A DNA stretch of 5,954 bases, from the IMG/VR virus record IMGVR_UViG_2684622669_000017, one strand, 5' to 3'. The stretch comes from a virus (taxonomy: Duplodnaviria > Heunggongvirae > Uroviricota > Caudoviricetes). How positions within the stretch are numbered: position 1 is the first letter of the stretch; every line of letters starts with the position of its first letter. This document shows, in pieces, positions 2,340-5,954 of this stretch. The position numbers were made by a program, and so were the translations under genes. The notes beneath the pieces were generated by a model. It saw only the letters and a program-made list of their open reading frames with translations, ran no database searches and had not been told where the DNA came from.

Positions 2340-2483
2340 TTAACAGAGTGCTGAAAGCAGAAAGTAAATACCCCCCCGCTCGGTGTTATTTTCGGTTAAT
2401 TCATCCAGTACCGTTTTTAATTCAAGCGCCCTGATTAATGCATTCTCAGAATGAATAAGAACATCGAAAGGGATTTTATCCAT
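2340..2483 (-). CDS. Small hypothetical ORF (47 aa as sequenced); would be 69 aa ending at 2275 if the G7 tract were G8
   Basis: ATG at 2483..2481 with GGAGGA 8 nt upstream, overlapping the stop of the upstream ORF (ATGGATAA). Translation MDKIPFDVLIHSENALIRALELKTVLDELTENNTERGGIYFLLSALC. A +1 change in the homopolymer at 2371-2377 extends the reading frame to a TAA at 2275-2277, directly in front of the RBS of the next gene. Below the ORF-track length cutoff. Confidence 0.4.
   Translation of the reverse strand: MDKIPFDVLIHSENALIRALELKTVLDELTENNTERGGIYFLLSALC
2371..2377. repeat. C7 (plus) / G7 (mRNA) homopolymer inside a coding region; candidate frameshift site
   Basis: cccccccg at 2371-2378; read directly from the sequence. 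Confidence 0.9.
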
Positions 2484-2709
2484 GGCTTACATCCTCCGGG
2501 AATTTTCTTCTGTAACGCGCCTCTGCCACATATTCAGCATAGTCCGACGCAATAACGAGAATATCGCTGCCTGTTCCTGAATGCTCAGTGGTTCCAATTA
2601 AAAAACATGCGGCCTTTATCAGGTCATTAACAACCAGCAACGCATCACCCGCATCATCCGATACGCCATCAAATTCCTGTTTCAGGGCATTAAAACGATC
2701 ATCACGCAT
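2476..2709 (-). CDS. Hypothetical protein (77 aa); possibly the C-terminal part of a gene split by the G9 tract
   Basis: ORF track; ATG at 2709..2707 lies 2 nt after the G9 run (the run could act as an SD but the spacing is short); overlaps the 3' end of the upstream ORF by 28 nt in another frame. Confidence 0.5.
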   Translation of the reverse strand: MRDDRFNALKQEFDGVSDDAGDALLVVNDLIKAACFLIGTTEHSGTGSDILVIASDYAEYVAEARYRRKFPEDVSHG

Positions 2710-2942
2710 AACCCCCCCCCATTTTCACAATCAGCAATCAGGATGGCTTTGGCCTCATTCAGTGCCATATCAGCGGTAAGCTGTGCGTAGGCCAGCGAAT
2801 GGGGGATTATTGCCCCTGTATACTCCGGCTCTCTGGTAATGTGTTTTTCTGCGGTTGCTGCCGTGCATGAAATATCAATCAGCGCGCGCATTAGCGTTCT
2901 GATAGCTTCGTCGGCTGCGTCCGGACGGGTGTTATTGCACAT
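2682..2942 (-). CDS. Hypothetical protein (86 aa); possibly the N-terminal part of a gene split by the G9 tract
   Basis: ORF track; ATG at 2942..2940 with GGAGG 6 nt upstream; start overlaps the stop of the Icd-like gene (ATGTGCAATAA). The final 9 codons after the G9 tract (LCVMIVLMP) look like out-of-frame read-through. Confidence 0.55.
   Translation of the reverse strand: MCNNTRPDAADEAIRTLMRALIDISCTAATAEKHITREPEYTGAIIPHSLAYAQLTADMALNEAKAILIADCENGGGLCVMIVLMP
2712..2720. repeat. C9 (plus) / G9 (mRNA) homopolymer at the junction of two overlapping ORFs; candidate frameshift, slippage or sequencing-error site
   Basis: accccccccc at 2711-2720; read directly from the sequence. One extra G would fuse ORF 2682..2942 to ORF 2476..2709 (...DCENGGG-VMRDDRFNALK...), giving about 151 aa. 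Confidence 0.9.
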
Positions 2943-3138
2943 GGTGCACCTCCTGACGAATACGGGCGGCGAATACCATCACGCAGCCAGCCGGTGATTG
3001 TTGACGGGCTTCCTGTTCGCTGGTGGCCACGATGTGAATCACGCGCGGTTGTGCCGTGCTCAGGGCGATAAAACGCCAGATGTATTTATTCAGGTTGTGC
3101 GAGTCCCGCCCTTGCGGGTGTGTGGTATGATTTCTCAT
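2932..3138 (-). CDS. Small protein (68 aa) resembling Icd-like (host cell-division inhibitor-like) proteins of P4-type elements; first gene of the leftward operon
   Basis: ATG at 3138..3136 with GAGGT 4 nt upstream. Translation MRNHTTHPQGRDSHNLNKYIWRFIALSTAQPRVIHIVATSEQEARQQSPAGCVMVFAARIRQEVHHVQ. The W-R-F-x-A...ATSEQEAR...FAAR pattern matches, from memory, the Icd-like small-protein family. It is the 3' end of a 356-aa ORF-track entry whose upstream part I consider non-coding. Confidence 0.55.
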   Translation of the reverse strand: MRNHTTHPQGRDSHNLNKYIWRFIALSTAQPRVIHIVATSEQEARQQSPAGCVMVFAARIRQEVHHVQ

Positions 3139-3175
3139 AGCTACCTCGATACTTCTGCTATCGTTGGTGGTTAGA

Positions 3176-3209
3176 AGCCCTGCGAGTGGTAACGACACTT
3201 GCGGGGCTT
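3176..3209 (-). promoter_or_regulatory. 13-bp imperfect inverted repeat (AGCCCTGCGAGTG-N8-CACTTGCGGGGCT) in the predicted 5' leader of the leftward operon
   Basis: Read from sequence; 11/13 Watson-Crick matches, and both mismatches become G.U pairs in RNA; lies between the predicted leftward promoter and the Icd-like RBS. Confidence 0.45.
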
Positions 3210-3230
3210 TGCATTTATGCGCCTTGATAA

Positions 3231-3271
3231 TTTTAAGGTGTGGCCCACTATATGTTTTAGGTGTGGTCCAC
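3231..3271. promoter_or_regulatory. Tandem operator-like repeats TTTTA(A)GGTGTGG(C/T)CCAC, each containing a GTGG-N-CCAC palindrome
   Basis: Repeat 1 at 3231-3248 (palindrome GTGGCCCAC 3240-3248), repeat 2 at 3255-3271 (GTGGTCCAC 3263-3271), period about 24 bp. They overlap the -10 and spacer of the predicted leftward promoter and lie upstream of the RHH gene. Confidence 0.55.
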
Positions 3272-3276
3272 GTCAA
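3247..3276 (-). promoter_or_regulatory. Predicted sigma70 promoter for the leftward Icd-like/helicase operon (TTGACG-N18-TATAGT)
   Basis: Minus-strand -35 TTGACG (3276..3271) and -10 TATAGT (3252..3247) with an 18-nt spacer; predicted TSS near 3240; both operator repeats overlap it. Confidence 0.5.
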
Positions 3277-3337
3277 GAGTTTTATTTGTGCTTTTTCTGT
3301 GTATACTGTCCCCCACCAATCCACCAGAGGAATAGAA

Positions 3338-3517
3338 ATGGCAACGGGTACAACAAACGCAAAATCACAAGCTCTAAAGGCTCGTGTACCACACGAAATA
3401 GTAAACGCCATGGAATCAGTGAAAGAATCAGGCGAAAGCACATCACAATTCATCATTACGTCAATGCAAGGCGAGATCAAACGCCGCCAGCGGCGCAAGG
3501 CCAAAGAGCAGGAGTAA
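3338..3517 (+). CDS. Ribbon-helix-helix (Arc/MetJ/CopG-like) DNA-binding protein, 59 aa; candidate repressor of the divergent promoter
   Basis: ATG at 3338 with GAGG 7 nt upstream. Translation MATGTTNAKSQALKARVPHEIVNAMESVKESGESTSQFIITSMQGEIKRRQRRKAKEQE. Beta-strand (LKARVP) - helix A (HEIVNAMESVKES) - G-x-S turn - helix B matches the RHH signature (compare Arc NLRWPREVLDLVRKVAEENGRSVNSEIYQRVME). Palindromic repeats lie upstream. Confidence 0.65.
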   Translation: MATGTTNAKSQALKARVPHEIVNAMESVKESGESTSQFIITSMQGEIKRRQRRKAKEQE

Positions 3518-3574
3518 CCATCACCAGCGCCGTGGTGTGAGTAACTACGGCGCATTGCTATGCAGGACAACACA

Positions 3575-3748
3575 ATGACCGATAAAGAATTGACCAAAAC
3601 ATTATCACCGGCACGGAAAAGACGGCGCAGAAAGATAGAACATGAATCAGAAAGATTCGCACCTTGTTCGTTTGCTCTTGAGAAATTCCTTAAAGAGCAC
3701 AGGAAAAAGCTCTCGTTGCAAACCTTGGAACGAACCAAATCTGACTGA
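3575..3748 (+). CDS. Small basic protein (57 aa; 62 aa if translation starts at the upstream ATG 3560), function unknown
   Basis: ATG at 3575 preceded by AGGA (3564-3567) with 7-nt spacing; the ORF-track start at 3560 lacks an SD. Translation MTDKELTKTLSPARKRRRRKIEHESERFAPCSFALEKFLKEHRKKLSLQTLERTKSD; same frame as the RHH gene but separated by two stop codons. Confidence 0.45.
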   Translation: MTDKELTKTLSPARKRRRRKIEHESERFAPCSFALEKFLKEHRKKLSLQTLERTKSD

Positions 3749-3827
3749 TCACATTGCCCACCAGCCGCAAATGTGGCATTGTTGGTGATGCTCATACGTT
3801 GGGGATAACGTGTAGCTTGTGTCGAGG

Positions 3828-3855
3828 GGCCACCGTAGCGGTTGGCCTTTGTTTT
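3828..3855 (+). terminator. Probable intrinsic terminator of the RHH/small-protein operon
   Basis: Hairpin GGCCACCG-tag-CGGTTGGCC (8 bp with one bulge) followed by TTTGTTTT (3848-3855). Confidence 0.45.
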
Positions 3856-3872
3856 GCCTGTTATCCGGCAAT

Positions 3873-3902
3873 TGTGGCGCTTCGCCACACGGTTGATATA
3901 AT
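3873..3902 (+). promoter_or_regulatory. Extended -10 promoter (TGaTATAAT at 3894-3902) overlapped by a perfect 7-bp-arm palindrome TGTGGCG-CTT-CGCCACA (3873-3889)
   Basis: Perfect TATAAT at 3897-3902 preceded by TG at 3894-3895; -35 is weak (TTGTGG 3872-3877, 19-nt spacer); the palindrome occupies the -35/spacer region like an operator. Confidence 0.4.
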
Positions 3903-3908
3903 TCCCCT

Positions 3909-3979
3909 GCACTGATCCATTTTTTTCGCAGCAGGTTAATTGTTCGCAAGGGCGCTCCGGTAACGGGGCGCTTTTTGTT
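3909..3979 (+). ncRNA. Candidate small RNA (about 70 nt) between its own promoter and an intrinsic terminator
   Basis: Predicted TSS about 7 nt after the TATAAT; transcript ends at the 3952-3979 terminator; no ORF with an RBS in between; contains a possible 5' hairpin CCTGC...GCAGG. Entirely inferential. Confidence 0.3.
3952..3979 (+). terminator. Intrinsic terminator (plus strand): GC-rich 8-bp stem with GUAA tetraloop and U-tract
   Basis: GCGCTCCG-gtaa-CGGGGCGC (one U.G pair) followed by TTTTTGTT (3972-3979). On the minus strand the hairpin is not followed by a T-run, so it is unidirectional. Confidence 0.55.
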
Positions 3980-4006
3980 ATGTTCATCGCGTTACGCCTC
4001 ACACCA

Positions 4007-4213
4007 TTACGCAGCCGTTCCGCGCGCTTCTTCCTCGCGCTCTTTCAGCCAGGCCAGCACTTCATCTTCATACCAGCCAACACGACGCAGACCGATTTTG
4101 AATCCTTTCGGGAATTTTCCGGCGTTGATCATGTCCTGTAGCGAACTGTCTGCCTTGATGCGCAGAATATTTTTTACTTCCTGACGGGTAAGTATTTTTC
4201 TGATTGTTTCCAC
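4007..4213 (-). CDS. alpA: AlpA-family phage regulatory protein (transcriptional activator / excisionase-like, winged HTH)
   Basis: 68-aa ORF starting at GTG 4213..4211 with GAGGT 8 nt upstream. Translation ...ILTRQEVKNILRIKADSSLQDMINAGKFPKGFKIGLRRVGWYEDEVLAWLKER aligns with E. coli AlpA motifs (FPK, VGW, E-x-E-[IV]-x-x-W-L). Confidence 0.8.
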   Translation of the reverse strand: METIRKILTRQEVKNILRIKADSSLQDMINAGKFPKGFKIGLRRVGWYEDEVLAWLKEREEEARGTAA

Positions 4214-4280
4214 TATGTTTTACCTCGTTAATCCGGCGTATTCCGGTGATAAATACGGTAAAACAGGGCAGGGCGGGAAA

Positions 4281-4318
4281 AACAGTACCCACCGTTTTAA
4301 AACGGTACCCACTGTTTT
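4281..4318. promoter_or_regulatory. Composite repeat upstream of alpA: two direct GTACCCAC copies 20 bp apart around a perfect palindrome CCGTTTTAAAACGG, with inverted outer flanks AAAAACAG / CTGTTTTT
   Basis: GTACCCAC at 4285-4292 and 4305-4312; palindrome at 4292-4305; lies between the int-operon terminator and the alpA RBS. Confidence 0.4.
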
Positions 4319-4712: not shown

Positions 4713-5954
4713 TTACACGGCACGGATACCCCTTTTACCACTGGCTATGGTCACTCCGGTAGCTGCGGCCTCTACAAATTCCCCCCACCAGCGCATAAGC
4801 ACCACGCGCTTTTCCAGGTAGTTACTTCGGTTATATGCTCGCCTTACCTCGTTCGTGTCCACGTGTGCGAGTGCGGCCTCGATTACGTCCGGCTCGAATC
4901 CTTCCTCGTTCGCTGCTGTACTGAATATGGCGCGTAATCCGTGAGACACCAGCACACCAGCGTAACCCATCCGGCGTAATGCAGCGTTAGCGGTCTGGCT
5001 GCTCATTGGTAGCATTGGATTTTTAAGGCTGGGAAAAACATGTTCCCTGTGTGCGCTGATTGGCTTCATGGTTTCCAGTACAGCCATAGCCTGACCGCAA
5101 AGGGGGATCACATGGTCACGGCGCATCTTCATGCGTCCGGCTGGAATCGTCCAGGTTTCGGCATCGAGATCTATTTCTTCCCAGCGTGCGGCGGCTGCTT
5201 CGGCTGGGCGTGCTACGGTCAACAGTTGCCACTCGATCAGCAATCTGGTTTGCCGTTCTATGCTGGCGACCGATAAATCGTGCATTAGCTGCGGTAGCTG
5301 TTCCGGTCGGATGGTTGGCATGTGCTTTTTGGTGGGTGAGGGAAATGCCTTGCGGACGTTAGCAGCGGTGTTGATGTCAATCAGCCCACTGTTGGCGGCA
5401 AAATCCATCACTTCATTGATGCGCTGCAAAACGCGTTTCAGAGTTTCCAGGTTGCCGCGTGCTTTAATGGGTGTGAGTATCTCAACAAAGCGGCGAGCGG
5501 TGAGGGTATCTATTGGCGTTTTTCCGATGTACGGGAATACGTATTTTTCCATGGATCGCCAGATATCCTTAATCGTGTTGTAAGCGAGATTCTGGCCTTT
5601 TTTCATCTCGTACCAGTCAGAGGCAACTTTTTCGAACGTGTTGCCCTTTTTCCGACTCTCTGCTTCACGTTTCCGGCGTTCGTGGTCCTGTGGGTCAACT
5701 CCCTTCGCTATGAGTGACCTGTATTCATTCCGTCGTTCTCTGGCATCGGACAGGGAAACATCATTCAGCGATCCGAGGCTGATGATAGTCCGTTTTTTAT
5801 CTGCCGGGCGGTAGTACGTAAAACGCCAGATTTTTGATCCGGAGGGTTTCACCAGAAGAAATAATCCTCCGCCATCCTGCAGGGTGTATTCCTTTTCCCC
5901 TGGTCGTGCGTTTTTGATCTCCGTAATAGTTAGTGGGGTGGTTTTTCGTGCCAT
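4713..5954 (-). CDS. int: Site-specific tyrosine recombinase/integrase, P4 family (N-terminal arm-binding DUF4102-type domain plus catalytic domain)
   Basis: 413-aa ORF; ATG is the last three nucleotides of the window (5954..5952); TAA at 4715..4713. N-terminus MARKTTPLTITEIKNARPGEKEYTLQDGGGLFLLVKPSGSKIWRFTYY is typical of P4-type integrases (compare E. coli IntA). Catalytic motifs are present: R in TVARPAE, HGLRAIF (H-x-x-R), and tyrosine in RRAYNRSNY. Confidence 0.92.
   Translation of the reverse strand: MARKTTPLTITEIKNARPGEKEYTLQDGGGLFLLVKPSGSKIWRFTYYRPADKKRTIISLGSLNDVSLSDARERRNEYRSLIAKGVDPQDHERRKREAESRKKGNTFEKVASDWYEMKKGQNLAYNTIKDIWRSMEKYVFPYIGKTPIDTLTARRFVEILTPIKARGNLETLKRVLQRINEVMDFAANSGLIDINTAANVRKAFPSPTKKHMPTIRPEQLPQLMHDLSVASIERQTRLLIEWQLLTVARPAEAAAARWEEIDLDAETWTIPAGRMKMRRDHVIPLCGQAMAVLETMKPISAHREHVFPSLKNPMLPMSSQTANAALRRMGYAGVLVSHGLRAIFSTAANEEGFEPDVIEAALAHVDTNEVRRAYNRSNYLEKRVVLMRWWGEFVEAAATGVTIASGKRGIRAV

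Follow-up and report, generated by a model that had tools for sequence, protein, structure and literature searches.

Between alpA and the replication operon of this E. coli phage-inducible chromosomal island (PICI), we find a module that probably acts as an immunity switch, in which a small ribbon-helix-helix (RHH) protein and an antisense RNA would lock the replication operon and AlpA-driven, translated read-through would bypass both. We put the probability of this reading at roughly 60%. The window, i.e. the whole stretch of 5,954 nucleotides that was analysed, belongs to a PICI of the EcCICFT073 type as judged by its integrase, AlpA, RepA-family helicase and iterons, and its gene order is int, alpA, the RHH and P57 genes, an Icd-like gene, DUF4222, the RepA helicase gene and iterons. 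Relatives adjoin tRNA-Pro and carry capsid genes. Gram-negative PICIs are widespread carriers of virulence and anti-phage genes. In their founding paper, a global repressor is stated as 'unclear', and AlpA is the activator (PMC6092414). Here, a candidate PICI repressor, three putative operators, an RNA lock and an AlpA override route are named together. Moreover, the RHH/P57 module is 94% identical to that of the experimental model island EcCICFT073 (the similarity extends to query position 840 of 867), so that the proposed steps are directly testable with existing strains. The genes involved are:

4007..4213, minus strand: alpA, activator gene (Pfam Phage_AlpA, E = 4.5e-8)
3338..3517, plus strand: RHH gene, 59 aa, YlcI/YnfO family, candidate immunity repressor (Shine-Dalgarno AGAGGA at 3326-3331)
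3575..3748, plus strand: P57 gene, 57 aa (CAGGAC with core AGGA at 3563-3568)
2932..3138, minus strand: Icd-like gene, 68 aa; the nested short product, which opens the leftward replication operon (NF033153, phrog_6196)

The RHH and P57 genes had been singled out in a first-pass annotation as the only credible plus-strand genes in the window, which the list of open reading frames and family searches confirmed. The Icd-like protein matches the NCBIfam model NF033153 (phage_ICD_like) with 71 bits, as well as phrog_6196.

The 59-aa protein, already recognised as RHH in the first-pass annotation, is indeed encoded by an open reading frame and belongs to the NCBIfam family YlcI/YnfO (NF041551; 68 bits at a curated cut-off of 30), which is an uncharacterised family. 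Its predicted structure consists of an N-terminal strand, helix A, a turn and helix B, the fold of the RHH/MetJ-Arc superfamily. The strand alternates between hydrophobic residues for the core and polar or basic ones for the DNA side, as is typical of RHH proteins: positions 13, 15 and 17 are hydrophobic, S10 and R16 never vary, and positions 12 and 14 do. The turn G32-E33-S34-T35 is conserved before helix B, another hallmark of the superfamily. An hhalign comparison placed residues 12, 14 and 16 opposite Gln9, Asn11 and Arg13 of Arc, at a low probability of 19.5%. The C-terminus is a short, nearly invariant basic tail, with no toxin-binding C-terminal domain. A search of PDB chains with the RHH sequence profile returned chance matches only, tblastn against GenBank phage records gave no match, and the Pfam model DUF3950 (PF13132) did not match the window's protein at E <= 1.

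Control elements surrounding the RHH start are predicted as follows:

3247..3276, minus strand: P_left, putative promoter TTGACG-18-TATAGT, internal to a long open reading frame and placed before the operon that begins with the Icd-like gene and extends to the RepA helicase
3302..3307, plus strand: predicted -10 (TATACT) of P_right, the putative rightward promoter serving RHH and P57, with a poor -35 and T-rich upstream sequence
3238..3248, no strand assigned: putative operator O1, GTGTGGCCCAC, which overlaps the P_left -10
3261..3271, no strand assigned: putative operator O2, GTGTGGTCCAC, within the P_left spacer and directly adjoining the -35
3306..3316, no strand assigned: putative operator O3, CTGTCCCCCAC, directly after the rightward -10 and covering the predicted RHH transcript start

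The leftward promoter TTGACG-N18-TATAGT, previously proposed from the letters of the sequence, is present as a consensus prediction at 3276..3247. It scored 10/12 and is the single consensus match in 2900-4300, where shuffled sequence is expected to give 1.5 +/- 1.1. The TTGA of its -35 is conserved in 52 loci, and GTATACT at the rightward -10 in at least 80% of 52 upstream regions. Two direct repeats of 22 nt that are 82% identical (3227-3248 and 3250-3271) lie over the -10 and the spacer of P_left, as had been described. The two GTGG-N-CCAC operators claimed within them exist as well, but there are three sites, and what they conserve is GTG-N5-CAC. The palindrome GTGG-N-CCAC arises only because this allele happens to have TGGCC as its core, and it was discarded as operator definition. 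O3 is degenerate in this allele (core TCCCC versus TGGCC). Sequences with up to two mismatches to GTGTGGCCCAC occur four times in the window versus 1.95 expected, which might be chance when judged from the window alone. The operators are considered a real feature because 52 distinct related upstream regions show this arrangement at constant distances from the RHH ATG, namely at -100, -77 and -32. In the consensus of these regions, A-GTG-N5-CAC-x-TCAA is invariant at -77 (O2) and GTATACTG-N5-CAC at -32 (O3), and the orientation of O1 differs between elements (direct at -100, inverted at about -99 to -113).

All three sites within a locus share the same 5-bp core, which falls into about 20 classes between loci (approximately 70 related loci). 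Each core class pairs with one beta-strand signature, and the same pairs recur across genera and inside E. coli, e.g. KSKR(I/F)D(A/V)RVP with TCGGA and KSQSVTARIA with TCTTA. Residue 14 of the RHH protein is the column most informative on the core, followed by residues 12 and 5; at residues 12 and 14, for instance, A/K goes with TGGCC and K/E with TCAGC. The core changes jointly with those beta-strand residues that align to the base-contacting residues of Arc; being covariation among related sequences, this is not independent evidence that the RHH protein contacts the operators, and with operator and RHH N-terminus less than 100 bp apart the association could be inherited by linkage. AlpA, the integrase and the Icd-like protein were rejected as operator binders because each varies independently of operator class: among loci sharing the window's operator, AlpA is 34-60% identical, the integrase 25-35%, and the Icd-like gene is undetectable. 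In the closest relative, an unrelated RHH gene occupies the same slot and is accompanied by its own three GTGTACAC sites. A possible fourth operator inside the RHH gene (GTGTGGTACAC, 3384-3394, minus strand) was dismissed as being at chance level and mirroring the conserved R-V-P-H codons. Geometry and covariation together support the earlier proposal that the repeats serve as putative RHH operators over the promoter heading the replication operon. A more far-reaching reading, which we hold tentatively and regard as possible rather than probable, would make the RHH protein the master repressor of a large class of Gram-negative PICIs, with co-diversification of beta-strand and operator core, and with the repressor and cargo genes being true overlapping genes that lie antisense in a frame that needs translation for induction. 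A single stretch of DNA would then carry the lock on one strand and its translated bypass on the other. Immunity specificity would then be set by two or three beta-strand residues across some twenty operator-core classes. Independently of this reading, the roughly twenty beta-strand/core pairs amount to a natural table of specificities: small candidate repressors that are orthogonal to one another and on which the rules of RHH recognition can be tested.

A second potential lock lies at the start of the Icd-like gene:

3123..3218, plus strand: candidate cis-antisense small RNA of ~80 nt, complementary to the Icd-like leader with its Shine-Dalgarno sequence and to the start ATG
3123-3131, plus strand: predicted extended -10 of the small RNA, TGGTATGAT, with a start near 3137
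3147-3163, plus strand: hairpin 1 of the small RNA
3166-3174, plus strand: single-stranded stretch of the small RNA, GGUGGUUAG
3174-3210, plus strand: terminator hairpin of the small RNA with a U-rich tail

Both the structure and its strand are shown computationally. Compensatory changes were found in 11 of 13 pairs of the hairpin (matched by 0 of 500 shuffles), the minimum free energy of the small RNA is -40.8 kcal/mol (z = -7.3), and its -10 (TATGAT), opposite Icd-like codons 3-4, is conserved in position. In the minus sense, the hairpin has 45 A.C mismatches versus 2 G.U, and the structure belongs to the plus strand because the wobble pairs form only in that sense. The same numbers rule out the conserved hairpin as a 5' leader of the leftward mRNA, and the wobble asymmetry also contradicts the strand of a weak minus-strand match to the R1162 antisense RNA model (23 bits, threshold 55). 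Plus-strand matches to SymR (RF01809), aligned over the full length of the model, were obtained in six of eight relatives, all of them sub-threshold (28.7-40.4 bits; gathering threshold 61), and the SymR model did not match the window's small RNA at E <= 10. The candidate would work like SymR but is no SymR member by the Rfam criterion. It shares with SymR the layout of a ~77-nt antisense RNA that starts a few bases from the complement of the target start codon, and of two hairpins separated by a UGUGAUUAG-like single-stranded sequence. Unlike in SymR/SymE, the presumed target is not SymE but the Icd-like gene heading the replication operon. Rfam models for C4, CI and isrK gave no match in the window (E <= 1) or in 3080-3260 (E <= 10). 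The first-pass annotation had omitted the SymR-like RNA, as well as the third operator and the conserved open leftward frame.

This leftward frame spans the entire module, together with several hairpins on the opposite strand:

2932..4002, minus strand: long open reading frame (356 codons) that ends in frame as the Icd-like gene; GTG at 4002, 4 nt after the alpA stop
3526..3554, plus strand: GC-rich hairpin after the RHH stop and before the P57 start, no U tract
3824..3856, plus strand: T1, terminator-like hairpin predicted by folding, with a UUUGUUUUG tail, downstream of P57
3948..3979, plus strand: T2, intrinsic terminator whose 12-bp stem precedes TTTTTGTT; it faces the alpA 3' end

In antisense, the long frame traverses P57, the RHH gene, the operators and the leader, and it reproduces the nested layout of P4, i.e. 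a long frame from the end of alpA, a short in-frame product and a putative internal promoter. No clear Shine-Dalgarno sequence precedes its GTG. Of 71 loci, 55 have no stop in this frame, and the other two minus frames average 9.4 and 8.1 stops. Opposite the RHH gene, the frame is open in 68 of 69 cases versus 29 +/- 4 expected from synonymous-codon resampling, it is also open across the unrelated RHH gene of L001, and in all six E. coli alleles it stays open through P57 up to alpA. The remaining 16 of the 71 loci contain a stop. L068, the most frequent allele in E. coli, has one stop, located in the leader 22 codons before the Icd-like ATG, and continuous translation into the Icd-like domain is therefore not universal. 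An antisense frame kept stop-free across a functional gene via synonymous-codon choice ranks among the cleaner statistical cases of selected bacterial antisense overlap, and here a mechanism can be offered for it. Read in the minus sense, the plus-strand terminators lack a U tail, and leftward read-through should consequently not stop at T1. T2 coincides with the right edge of the similarity to EcCICFT073. The PGAP annotation of a relative had suggested a duplicated Icd-like remnant on the minus strand of 3749-4006; this was rejected, as the translations are without similarity, and the annotation is explained by the long frame. Transcription of this region is documented in EcCICFT073, where the published 'ORF3' reporter pJP1290 requires alpA and responds to helper phage by induction. 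Primer mapping placed it inside the long frame, 466 nt past alpA, and others have thereby shown experimentally that AlpA-dependent, helper-induced transcription enters this frame.

We propose that RHH dimers bind the three GTG-N5-CAC operators. At O1 and O2, they would cover the -10 and the spacer of P_left and switch off the replication operon, and at O3 they would cover the start of their own transcript and limit their own synthesis. The SymR-like antisense RNA made from the plus strand would act as a translational lock on the Icd-like cistron, with P57 riding the repressor transcript as a lineage-restricted passenger. Induction, we infer, would need no antirepressor: helper-induced, AlpA-activated transcription from P_alpA would run leftward past alpA into the long frame, whose translation would shield the transcript against termination and against the antisense RNA. 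This read-through would collide with transcription of the RHH gene and bring RNA polymerase to the replication operon by a route that avoids P_left. Satellite phage P4 offers a parallel in its nested kil/eta genes. On the other hand, the RHH protein on its three operators could block the read-through rather than be bypassed.

Several known systems resemble parts of this switch. The likeness to Arc/Mnt suggested in the first-pass annotation holds insofar as the beta-strand aligns with that of Arc and an antisense RNA is present, and P22 immI likewise combines an RHH repressor with an antisense RNA (sar in P22). However, there is one RHH protein here instead of two, the sites are three 11-bp units instead of 21-bp operators, and the window's protein shows no sequence-level family membership with Arc/Mnt. 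Further, the controlled operon serves satellite replication and not an antirepressor as in P22, and the repressor gene lies antisense inside a frame for which translated read-through is proposed. The immunity RNA of P4 (CI, C4 type) is made from the same strand. No protein repressor is known to us from P4, nor any gene encoded antisense to eta, whereas a candidate protein repressor gene and a cargo gene are embedded on the opposite strand here. Both systems have an alpA/vis homologue followed by a long frame with a short product (Kil in P4, Icd-like here), and the window has the same nesting, with a 4-nt junction between alpA and the frame. In P4, whose immunity region comprises vis, kil/eta, P_LE/P_LL and the CI RNA, the long frame begins at the vis stop and contains the nested in-frame Kil and an internal promoter, and immunity is RNA-based. 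Translation from an upstream activated promoter lets P4 transcription escape the block (PMC10111431, citing Forti et al. 1999). As in the Stl/Str module of SaPIs, the candidate repressor gene lies beside int and points away from the replication operon, and accessory genes are tolerated beside the repressor in Gram-positive PICIs (PMC6092414). Stl, however, is a large helix-turn-helix protein that is inactivated by helper-phage proteins, while the repressor candidate of the window is a 59-aa RHH protein without homology to it, and induction would proceed via AlpA-driven read-through. The omega repressor of pSM19035 has no sequence homology either, and it uses contiguous 7-bp heptads, in contrast to the 11-bp units spaced 23 and 45 bp in the window.

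P57 has an arginine-rich N-terminus and a conserved helical, amphipathic core (ERFAPCxFALEKFLKE). Its ATG and the upstream AGG(A/C/T) motif keep a constant position in the four allele types read, and another ATG at 3560 is not kept in other P57 alleles. The hairpin at 3526-3554 occurs in all four P57-type alleles with G.U-compatible changes and may be an attenuator or a processing site. Protein searches recovered 45 clusters, all from Escherichia or Shigella, and the range of P57 comprises Escherichia and a few unplaced relatives. Within E. coli, 1419 of 5426 complete genomes (about a quarter) carry the gene. None of the 65 loci from other Enterobacterales species has a homologue: in many of them, the RHH gene is directly followed by a terminator, and elsewhere the slot is filled with unrelated, defence-type cargo such as kinase/phosphatase, AbiD-like or RES-domain genes. 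This distribution speaks against P57 as an obligatory partner or co-regulator, one of the roles first suggested for it. The alternative suggestion of a toxin-like partner found no backing in toxin or defence families. That P57 lacks a recognisable family is correct for Pfam, NCBIfam, PADLOC and PDB, and Pfam searches with all 33 alleles gave chance-level matches only, but phrog_21027 does match, as its only family. A Foldseek comparison of the P57 model with the PDB, a fold search having been proposed in the first-pass annotation, yielded no match. Judging from its sequence and distribution, P57 is likely a lineage-restricted passenger cargo on the repressor transcript, not a conserved partner or toxin, and can be seen as a candidate small effector.

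It might be argued that the P57 frame is a by-product of constraint on the opposite strand and encodes no functional protein, which we consider unlikely. The family is tiny (nine representatives, including one spurious repeat protein, came out of an exhaustive profile search of 1.84 billion proteins) and the structure model has only moderate confidence (pLDDT 69), both of which favour a by-product. Moreover, third codon positions coincide on both strands, so that an ordinary dN/dS (0.26-0.49 for P57) cannot separate P57 from the antisense frame, and a shared-wobble test was used as coding test in its place. Changes silent in P57 that alter the antisense product were seen at 8 of 104 opportunities versus 3 of 146 for the reverse, the same asymmetry as in the bona fide RHH gene, which points to amino-acid selection on the plus frame. 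The fixed start and AGG(A/C/T) motif, indels that are all in frame, the conserved amphipathic core and a plus frame that is open in six of six E. coli loci examined likewise argue that the 57-aa frame is real, as the first-pass annotation had assumed. A type II toxin-antitoxin or addiction module, with the RHH protein as autoregulating antitoxin and P57 as small toxin, appears highly improbable. A conserved cognate toxin gene is missing, given that P57 is confined as described and the RHH gene often stands alone before a terminator, the RHH protein has no toxin-binding extension, and P57 resembles neither a toxin or defence model nor a solved fold. In addition, two of the three operators sit on the divergent promoter and not on the module's own.

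The openness of the long frame could also reflect selection on a protein, if it encoded a functional full-length Eta/Bro-type regulator ending in the Icd-like domain. The extra N-terminal stretch of the EcCICFT073 frame resembles the end of a Bro-N domain by eye, one allele has a Phage_ASH domain, and PGAP sometimes annotates the long form as an Icd-like protein. However, in nine of ten long frames the extension contains no Pfam domain, and its sequence, rich in Cys, Ser and Arg, is largely a mirror of the RHH and P57 genes. The antisense frame further tolerates amino-acid changes 3.4 to 3.7 times more than the plus-strand genes (shared-wobble test), and the upstream parts cannot be aligned between genera, which makes a full-length regulator quite doubtful. 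Another explanation confines the RHH protein to regulating its own operon and cargo, with P_left inactive and the replication operon transcribed solely from P_alpA; O1 and O2 would then serve cooperative autoregulation or form a roadblock to read-through. P_left is indeed a consensus match of a kind expected in shuffled sequence, alpA is required for induction according to published work and transcription from P_alpA runs into the region, and the open frame implies expression from upstream. Against this stand the TTGA of the -35 beside O2 and the spacer position of O2, which are invariant in 52 diverged regions. The Icd-like gene also keeps its own Shine-Dalgarno sequence, ATG and dedicated antisense RNA, which make sense only if a transcript starts nearby, and the homologous P4 layout has a real internal promoter (PMC10111431). 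We therefore regard pure autoregulation as improbable and favour the switch in which the RHH protein also represses P_left.

The E. coli K-12 namesakes of the repressor family, YlcI (prophage DLP12) and YnfO (prophage Qin), belong to the same NCBIfam family as the RHH protein of the window. By eye, the 200 nt upstream of YlcI show no comparable repeat, and unlike the window's gene YlcI adjoins nohD and the cos region of a lambdoid prophage. DUF3950 was recorded for the 65-aa RHH relative in L068-L070, and this DUF3950-type protein in L068 resembles YlcI.

The window is, on sequence comparison, a phage-inducible chromosomal island (PICI). This follows from its gene content (listed below), from E. 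coli chromosomes that match its entire length at 93-97% identity, and from the setting of its close relatives, which have an adjoining tRNA-Pro and capsid, decoration, and small-terminase genes further on.

Features of the island, by window position
4713-5954, minus: tyrosine integrase
between integrase and alpA, minus: 76-aa ORF
4007-4213, minus: alpA
3575-3748, plus: 57-aa basic protein (P57)
3338-3517, plus: 59-aa ribbon-helix-helix protein (RHH)
3306-3316, 3261-3271, 3238-3248: candidate operators O3, O2, O1
2932-3138, minus: Icd-like gene
left of the Icd-like gene, minus: several small ORFs, then a DUF4222 gene
558-1973, minus: RepA-family AAA_25 helicase gene
360-560, 3' of the helicase gene: array of TCCTCACTTTT-type direct and inverted repeats

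The array presumably represents the iterons of the replication origin, and the hairpin potential of its repeats explains spurious microRNA matches in Rfam. Over 3140-3979, the segment containing the RHH/P57 module, the window is 94% identical to EcCICFT073, the prototype PICI of E. coli CFT073, but the alpA, integrase, and replication genes flanking the module there are alleles unlike those of the window. This marks the module as an exchangeable cassette.

The first-pass annotation had described a genetic switch in this segment, and its elements were found in place: both ORFs with their ribosome-binding sites, two direct repeats (22 nt, 82% identical), and the leftward promoter-like site TTGACG-18-TATAGT (P_left, 3247-3276, minus strand). 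The operator motif count inside the window alone is not above chance, and the feature is counted as real because of the comparison with relatives. Scanning one genome per species yielded 65 loci encoding RHH relatives. In nearly all of them int and alpA follow downstream, encoded on the other strand, and the divergent upstream neighbour is an Icd-like or related gene. Aligned on the RHH start codon, their upstream regions share three sites at fixed positions relative to it: O3 at -32, directly 3' of an invariant GTATACT; O2 at -77, abutting an invariant TCAA (the TTGA of the leftward -35); and O1 at -100, or about -99 to -113 if inverted. In the consensus of 52 distinct upstream regions only an A-GTG-N5-CAC frame and the promoter elements are kept. 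Within a locus the 5-bp core is identical or one base off at all three sites, while between loci it falls into about 20 classes, each paired with one beta-strand signature; pairings known from other genera recur in the E. coli alleles found via P57.

RHH residues 9-18 and the paired operator core
KSQALKARVP: TGGCC
KSKKLEARVP: TCAGC
KSQMTTVRIP: AAATA / ACATA
KSQQLNARFP: AATCG
KSQKMSARVP: GCACC
K/RSLQVSVRLP: AACAC

Operator class is independent of AlpA, integrase, replication module, and Icd-like gene. In L001, the closest relative of the window's flanks, the same slot (9134-10007) holds a cassette with an unrelated 64-aa RHH-like gene (weak HicB match) and its own three GTGTACAC sites; a 158-aa cargo gene lies there as well. 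Given the tight linkage between the operators and the RHH N-terminus, the covariation of core and beta strand is partly co-inheritance, and the stronger arguments for recognition are the concerted identity of the three sites in each locus and specificity columns that match Arc contact positions. Of the protein columns, residue 14 carries the most information on the core, followed by residues 12 and 5, and a profile alignment places, with low probability, residues 12, 14, and 16 opposite Gln9, Asn11, and Arg13 of Arc, the base-contacting residues in the Arc-operator complex. S10 and R16 are invariant and positions 13, 15, and 17 hydrophobic; a natural reading would have Arg16, one from each subunit, recognise the symmetric GTG/CAC flanks, with the core read by residues 12 and 14, which vary. 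We put the probability that RHH binds O1, O2, and O3 at about 0.85. An operator-like GTGTGGTACAC inside the RHH gene (3384-3394, minus strand) mirrors the conserved R16-V17-P18-H19 codons and was set aside as probably coincidental.

RHH passes the NCBIfam YlcI/YnfO model (68 bits vs a cut-off of 30) and its predicted structure (pLDDT 90) consists of an extended stretch at the N-terminus and, after it, two helices, so that the fold first proposed for it is well supported as a prediction; a sequence search detected no solved-structure relatives. Our literature search found no paper giving the YlcI/YnfO family a function or tying it to PICI regulation. Unlike the variable DNA-reading strand, the motif E-I-K-R-R-Q-R in the C-terminal helix (residues 46-52; 3473-3493) is the same or almost the same in every operator class, which suggests a conserved contact (dimer-dimer, DNA backbone, or inducer). 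The family also exists outside a satellite switch setting: the namesake ylcI of E. coli K-12 DLP12 (L077, 8252-8446) diverges from nohD near cos of a lambdoid prophage, and by eye the 200 nt upstream of it contain no comparable three-site repeat.

P57 belongs to a small family essentially confined to Escherichia. A first search returned 45 clusters from Escherichia or Shigella only, an exhaustive profile search found only nine representatives among 1.84 billion proteins, and 1419 of 5426 complete E. coli genomes carry the gene. It had been considered as a possible partner of RHH, but a conserved partner it is not: the gene is missing from all 65 RHH-relative loci of other species, where an intrinsic terminator directly follows the RHH gene in many cases and unrelated cargo in others, which makes P57 cargo in the variable slot behind the repressor gene. 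Defence-type cargo occupies this position in four loci from other genera.

Defence-type cargo behind the RHH gene in other genera
L017, 4495-5283: RES-domain protein
L027, 4681-5949: helix-turn-helix protein and AbiD/PD-T4-5-like protein
L030, 4595-6075: PD-T4-6-type Ser/Thr kinase and PP2C phosphatase
L054, 4744-5187: DUF7832 protein

With cargo so varied, accessory genes appear to have a hotspot in the repressor transcript. P57 itself looks like a real gene when its alleles are compared. Its ATG and upstream AGG(A/C/T) motif are unchanged in position in the four allele types read, indels are in frame, the core ERFAPCxFALEKFLKE is conserved, and dN/dS is 0.26-0.49, third codon positions coinciding with those of the antisense frame. 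Its structure model has two helices at moderate confidence, and the suggestion of a toxin-like protein found no counterpart, with no match among solved structures or in family, toxin, and defence libraries; the arginine-rich N-terminus suggests that it might bind nucleic acid. The interval from RHH stop to P57 start holds, in all P57-type alleles, a GC-rich hairpin without a U tract (3526-3554, plus strand), which may attenuate or process the bicistronic transcript.

On the opposite strand, the Icd-like frame has no stop in the 288 codons preceding its ATG, up to a GTG at 4002, four bases past the alpA stop, giving a long frame of 356 codons (2932-4002, minus strand) antisense to P57, the RHH gene, all three operators, and the leader. 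From Icd-like start to RHH stop it contains zero in-frame stops in 55 of 71 distinct loci, whereas stops average 9.4 and 8.1 in the remaining two minus frames, neither of which is free of them in any locus. All six E. coli alleles examined have it open over RHH, spacer, and P57 on to alpA; their only in-frame stop, in CFT073, marks the upstream end of the ORF, leaving 37 nt between it and alpA there. One stop lies in the leader of the commonest E. coli allele (L068), Pectobacterium loci with large cargo have one or two, and in L001 the frame is open across the unrelated RHH and broken only within the 158-aa cargo gene. PGAP labels that broken frame as two partial Icd-like pseudogenes. An open antisense frame occurs in 68 of 69 RHH genes against 29.2 +/- 3.9 expected (maximum 41 in 300 trials) from synonymous resampling with every protein sequence preserved; codon choice is therefore under a constraint that keeps stops out of the opposite frame. 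The overlap is phased such that third codon positions coincide on both strands, and changes silent for the plus gene but not for the antisense frame are 3.4x more frequent than the reverse in RHH and 3.7x more frequent in P57 (8/104 opportunities vs 3/146), the compared pairs not being independent. This asymmetry indicates amino-acid selection on the plus-strand proteins, with the antisense frame merely kept open. No Pfam domain was found in the extension in nine of ten long ORFs.

A small antisense RNA probably exists at the Icd-like 5' end, to judge from a hairpin conserved between the Icd-like start codon and O1. Compensatory changes affect 11 of its 13 pairs, and over 33 sequences 88.5% of cells are paired, compared with 32-48% when partners are slid; none of 500 shuffles reached the observed value. 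Read leftward, the non-Watson-Crick cells comprise 45 A.C and 2 G.U, so that wobble pairs form in the rightward sense only, which places the structure on the plus strand, where a U-rich tail lies 3' of it. Upstream come another small hairpin, GGUGGUUAG, which is conserved and single-stranded, and a -10 conserved in position, TGGTATGAT (3123-3131, plus strand), within Icd-like codons 3-4. The RNA, predicted to measure about 80 nt (3137-3218; -40.8 kcal/mol, z = -7.3), is complementary to the Icd-like leader, Shine-Dalgarno sequence, and start codon. The Rfam SymR model aligns at full length on the plus strand in six of eight relatives at 28.7-40.4 bits, below its threshold of 61 bits, and the window's own copy goes undetected by it; the candidate would therefore act in the manner of SymR yet falls outside Rfam's SymR family. 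After P57 come two tandem terminator-like hairpins, T1 and T2 (3824-3979, plus strand); an extended -10-like TGATATAAT (3894-3902) lies between them and could drive an RNA of about 70 nt ending at T2, antisense to alpA read-through.

Published reporter work bears on the long frame. With the primers of Fillol-Salom et al. (2018) mapped onto CFT073, the fusion in pJP1290, described as 'to ORF3', ends 466 nt past the alpA stop, at a point within the long frame that is 43 nt away from the stop of P57. Its expression is alpA-dependent and raised in induced lambda and phi80 lysogens (Fillol-Salom et al. 2018). AlpA-dependent, helper-induced transcription therefore enters the frame leftward and converges on P57 and RHH; the plus-strand terminators at 3824-3856 (T1) and 3948-3979 (T2) have no U tail in this direction.

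In the model we propose, RHH at O1 and O2 would close P_left during quiescence and at O3 restrain synthesis of RHH and P57, while the antisense RNA would stop translation of escaping Icd-like mRNA. Upon helper infection, AlpA would switch on the alpA promoter, and the transcript would be translated from alpA into the long frame, shielding it from Rho and the antisense RNA; convergent transcription would lower RHH synthesis, and RNA polymerase would reach the replication operon independently of P_left. Repression of P_left by RHH seems likely, whereas translation of the long frame and its necessity for induction is an even bet; the model as a whole, loosely taken, stands somewhat better than even and lower if every step must hold. 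P4, as summarised in PMC10111431, shares this logic in its nested kil/eta read-through, but here the strand opposite the read-through frame encodes a protein repressor together with a cargo gene. The element is a known PICI type, and its components are likewise of known kinds: cis-antisense RNAs, translated read-through, and RHH repressors that act at divergent promoters. New are the proposal that the uncharacterised YlcI/YnfO family fills the vacant repressor role in Gram-negative PICIs, a three-site operator whose recognition code co-diversifies, a SymR-like RNA at this position, and the conserved antisense nesting of a repressor gene inside a bypass frame, which should interest specialists in phage satellites and gene regulation.

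Elsewhere in the island, an 86-aa and a 77-aa ORF (2476-2942, minus strand) match the first and second halves of phrog_2512 (154 aa), and the closest relative has them joined in one 154-aa CDS; a frameshift at a C9 tract (2712-2720) splits them and could reflect sequencing error, decay, or phase variation. The Rfam int-alpA RNA (RF02996) scores above threshold in two related loci (L027, 1847-1913; L043, 6910-6975) but not in the window. Upstream of alpA, at 4285-4312, the palindrome CCGTTTTAAAACGG lies between two GTACCCAC repeats, candidate sites for AlpA or promoter control.
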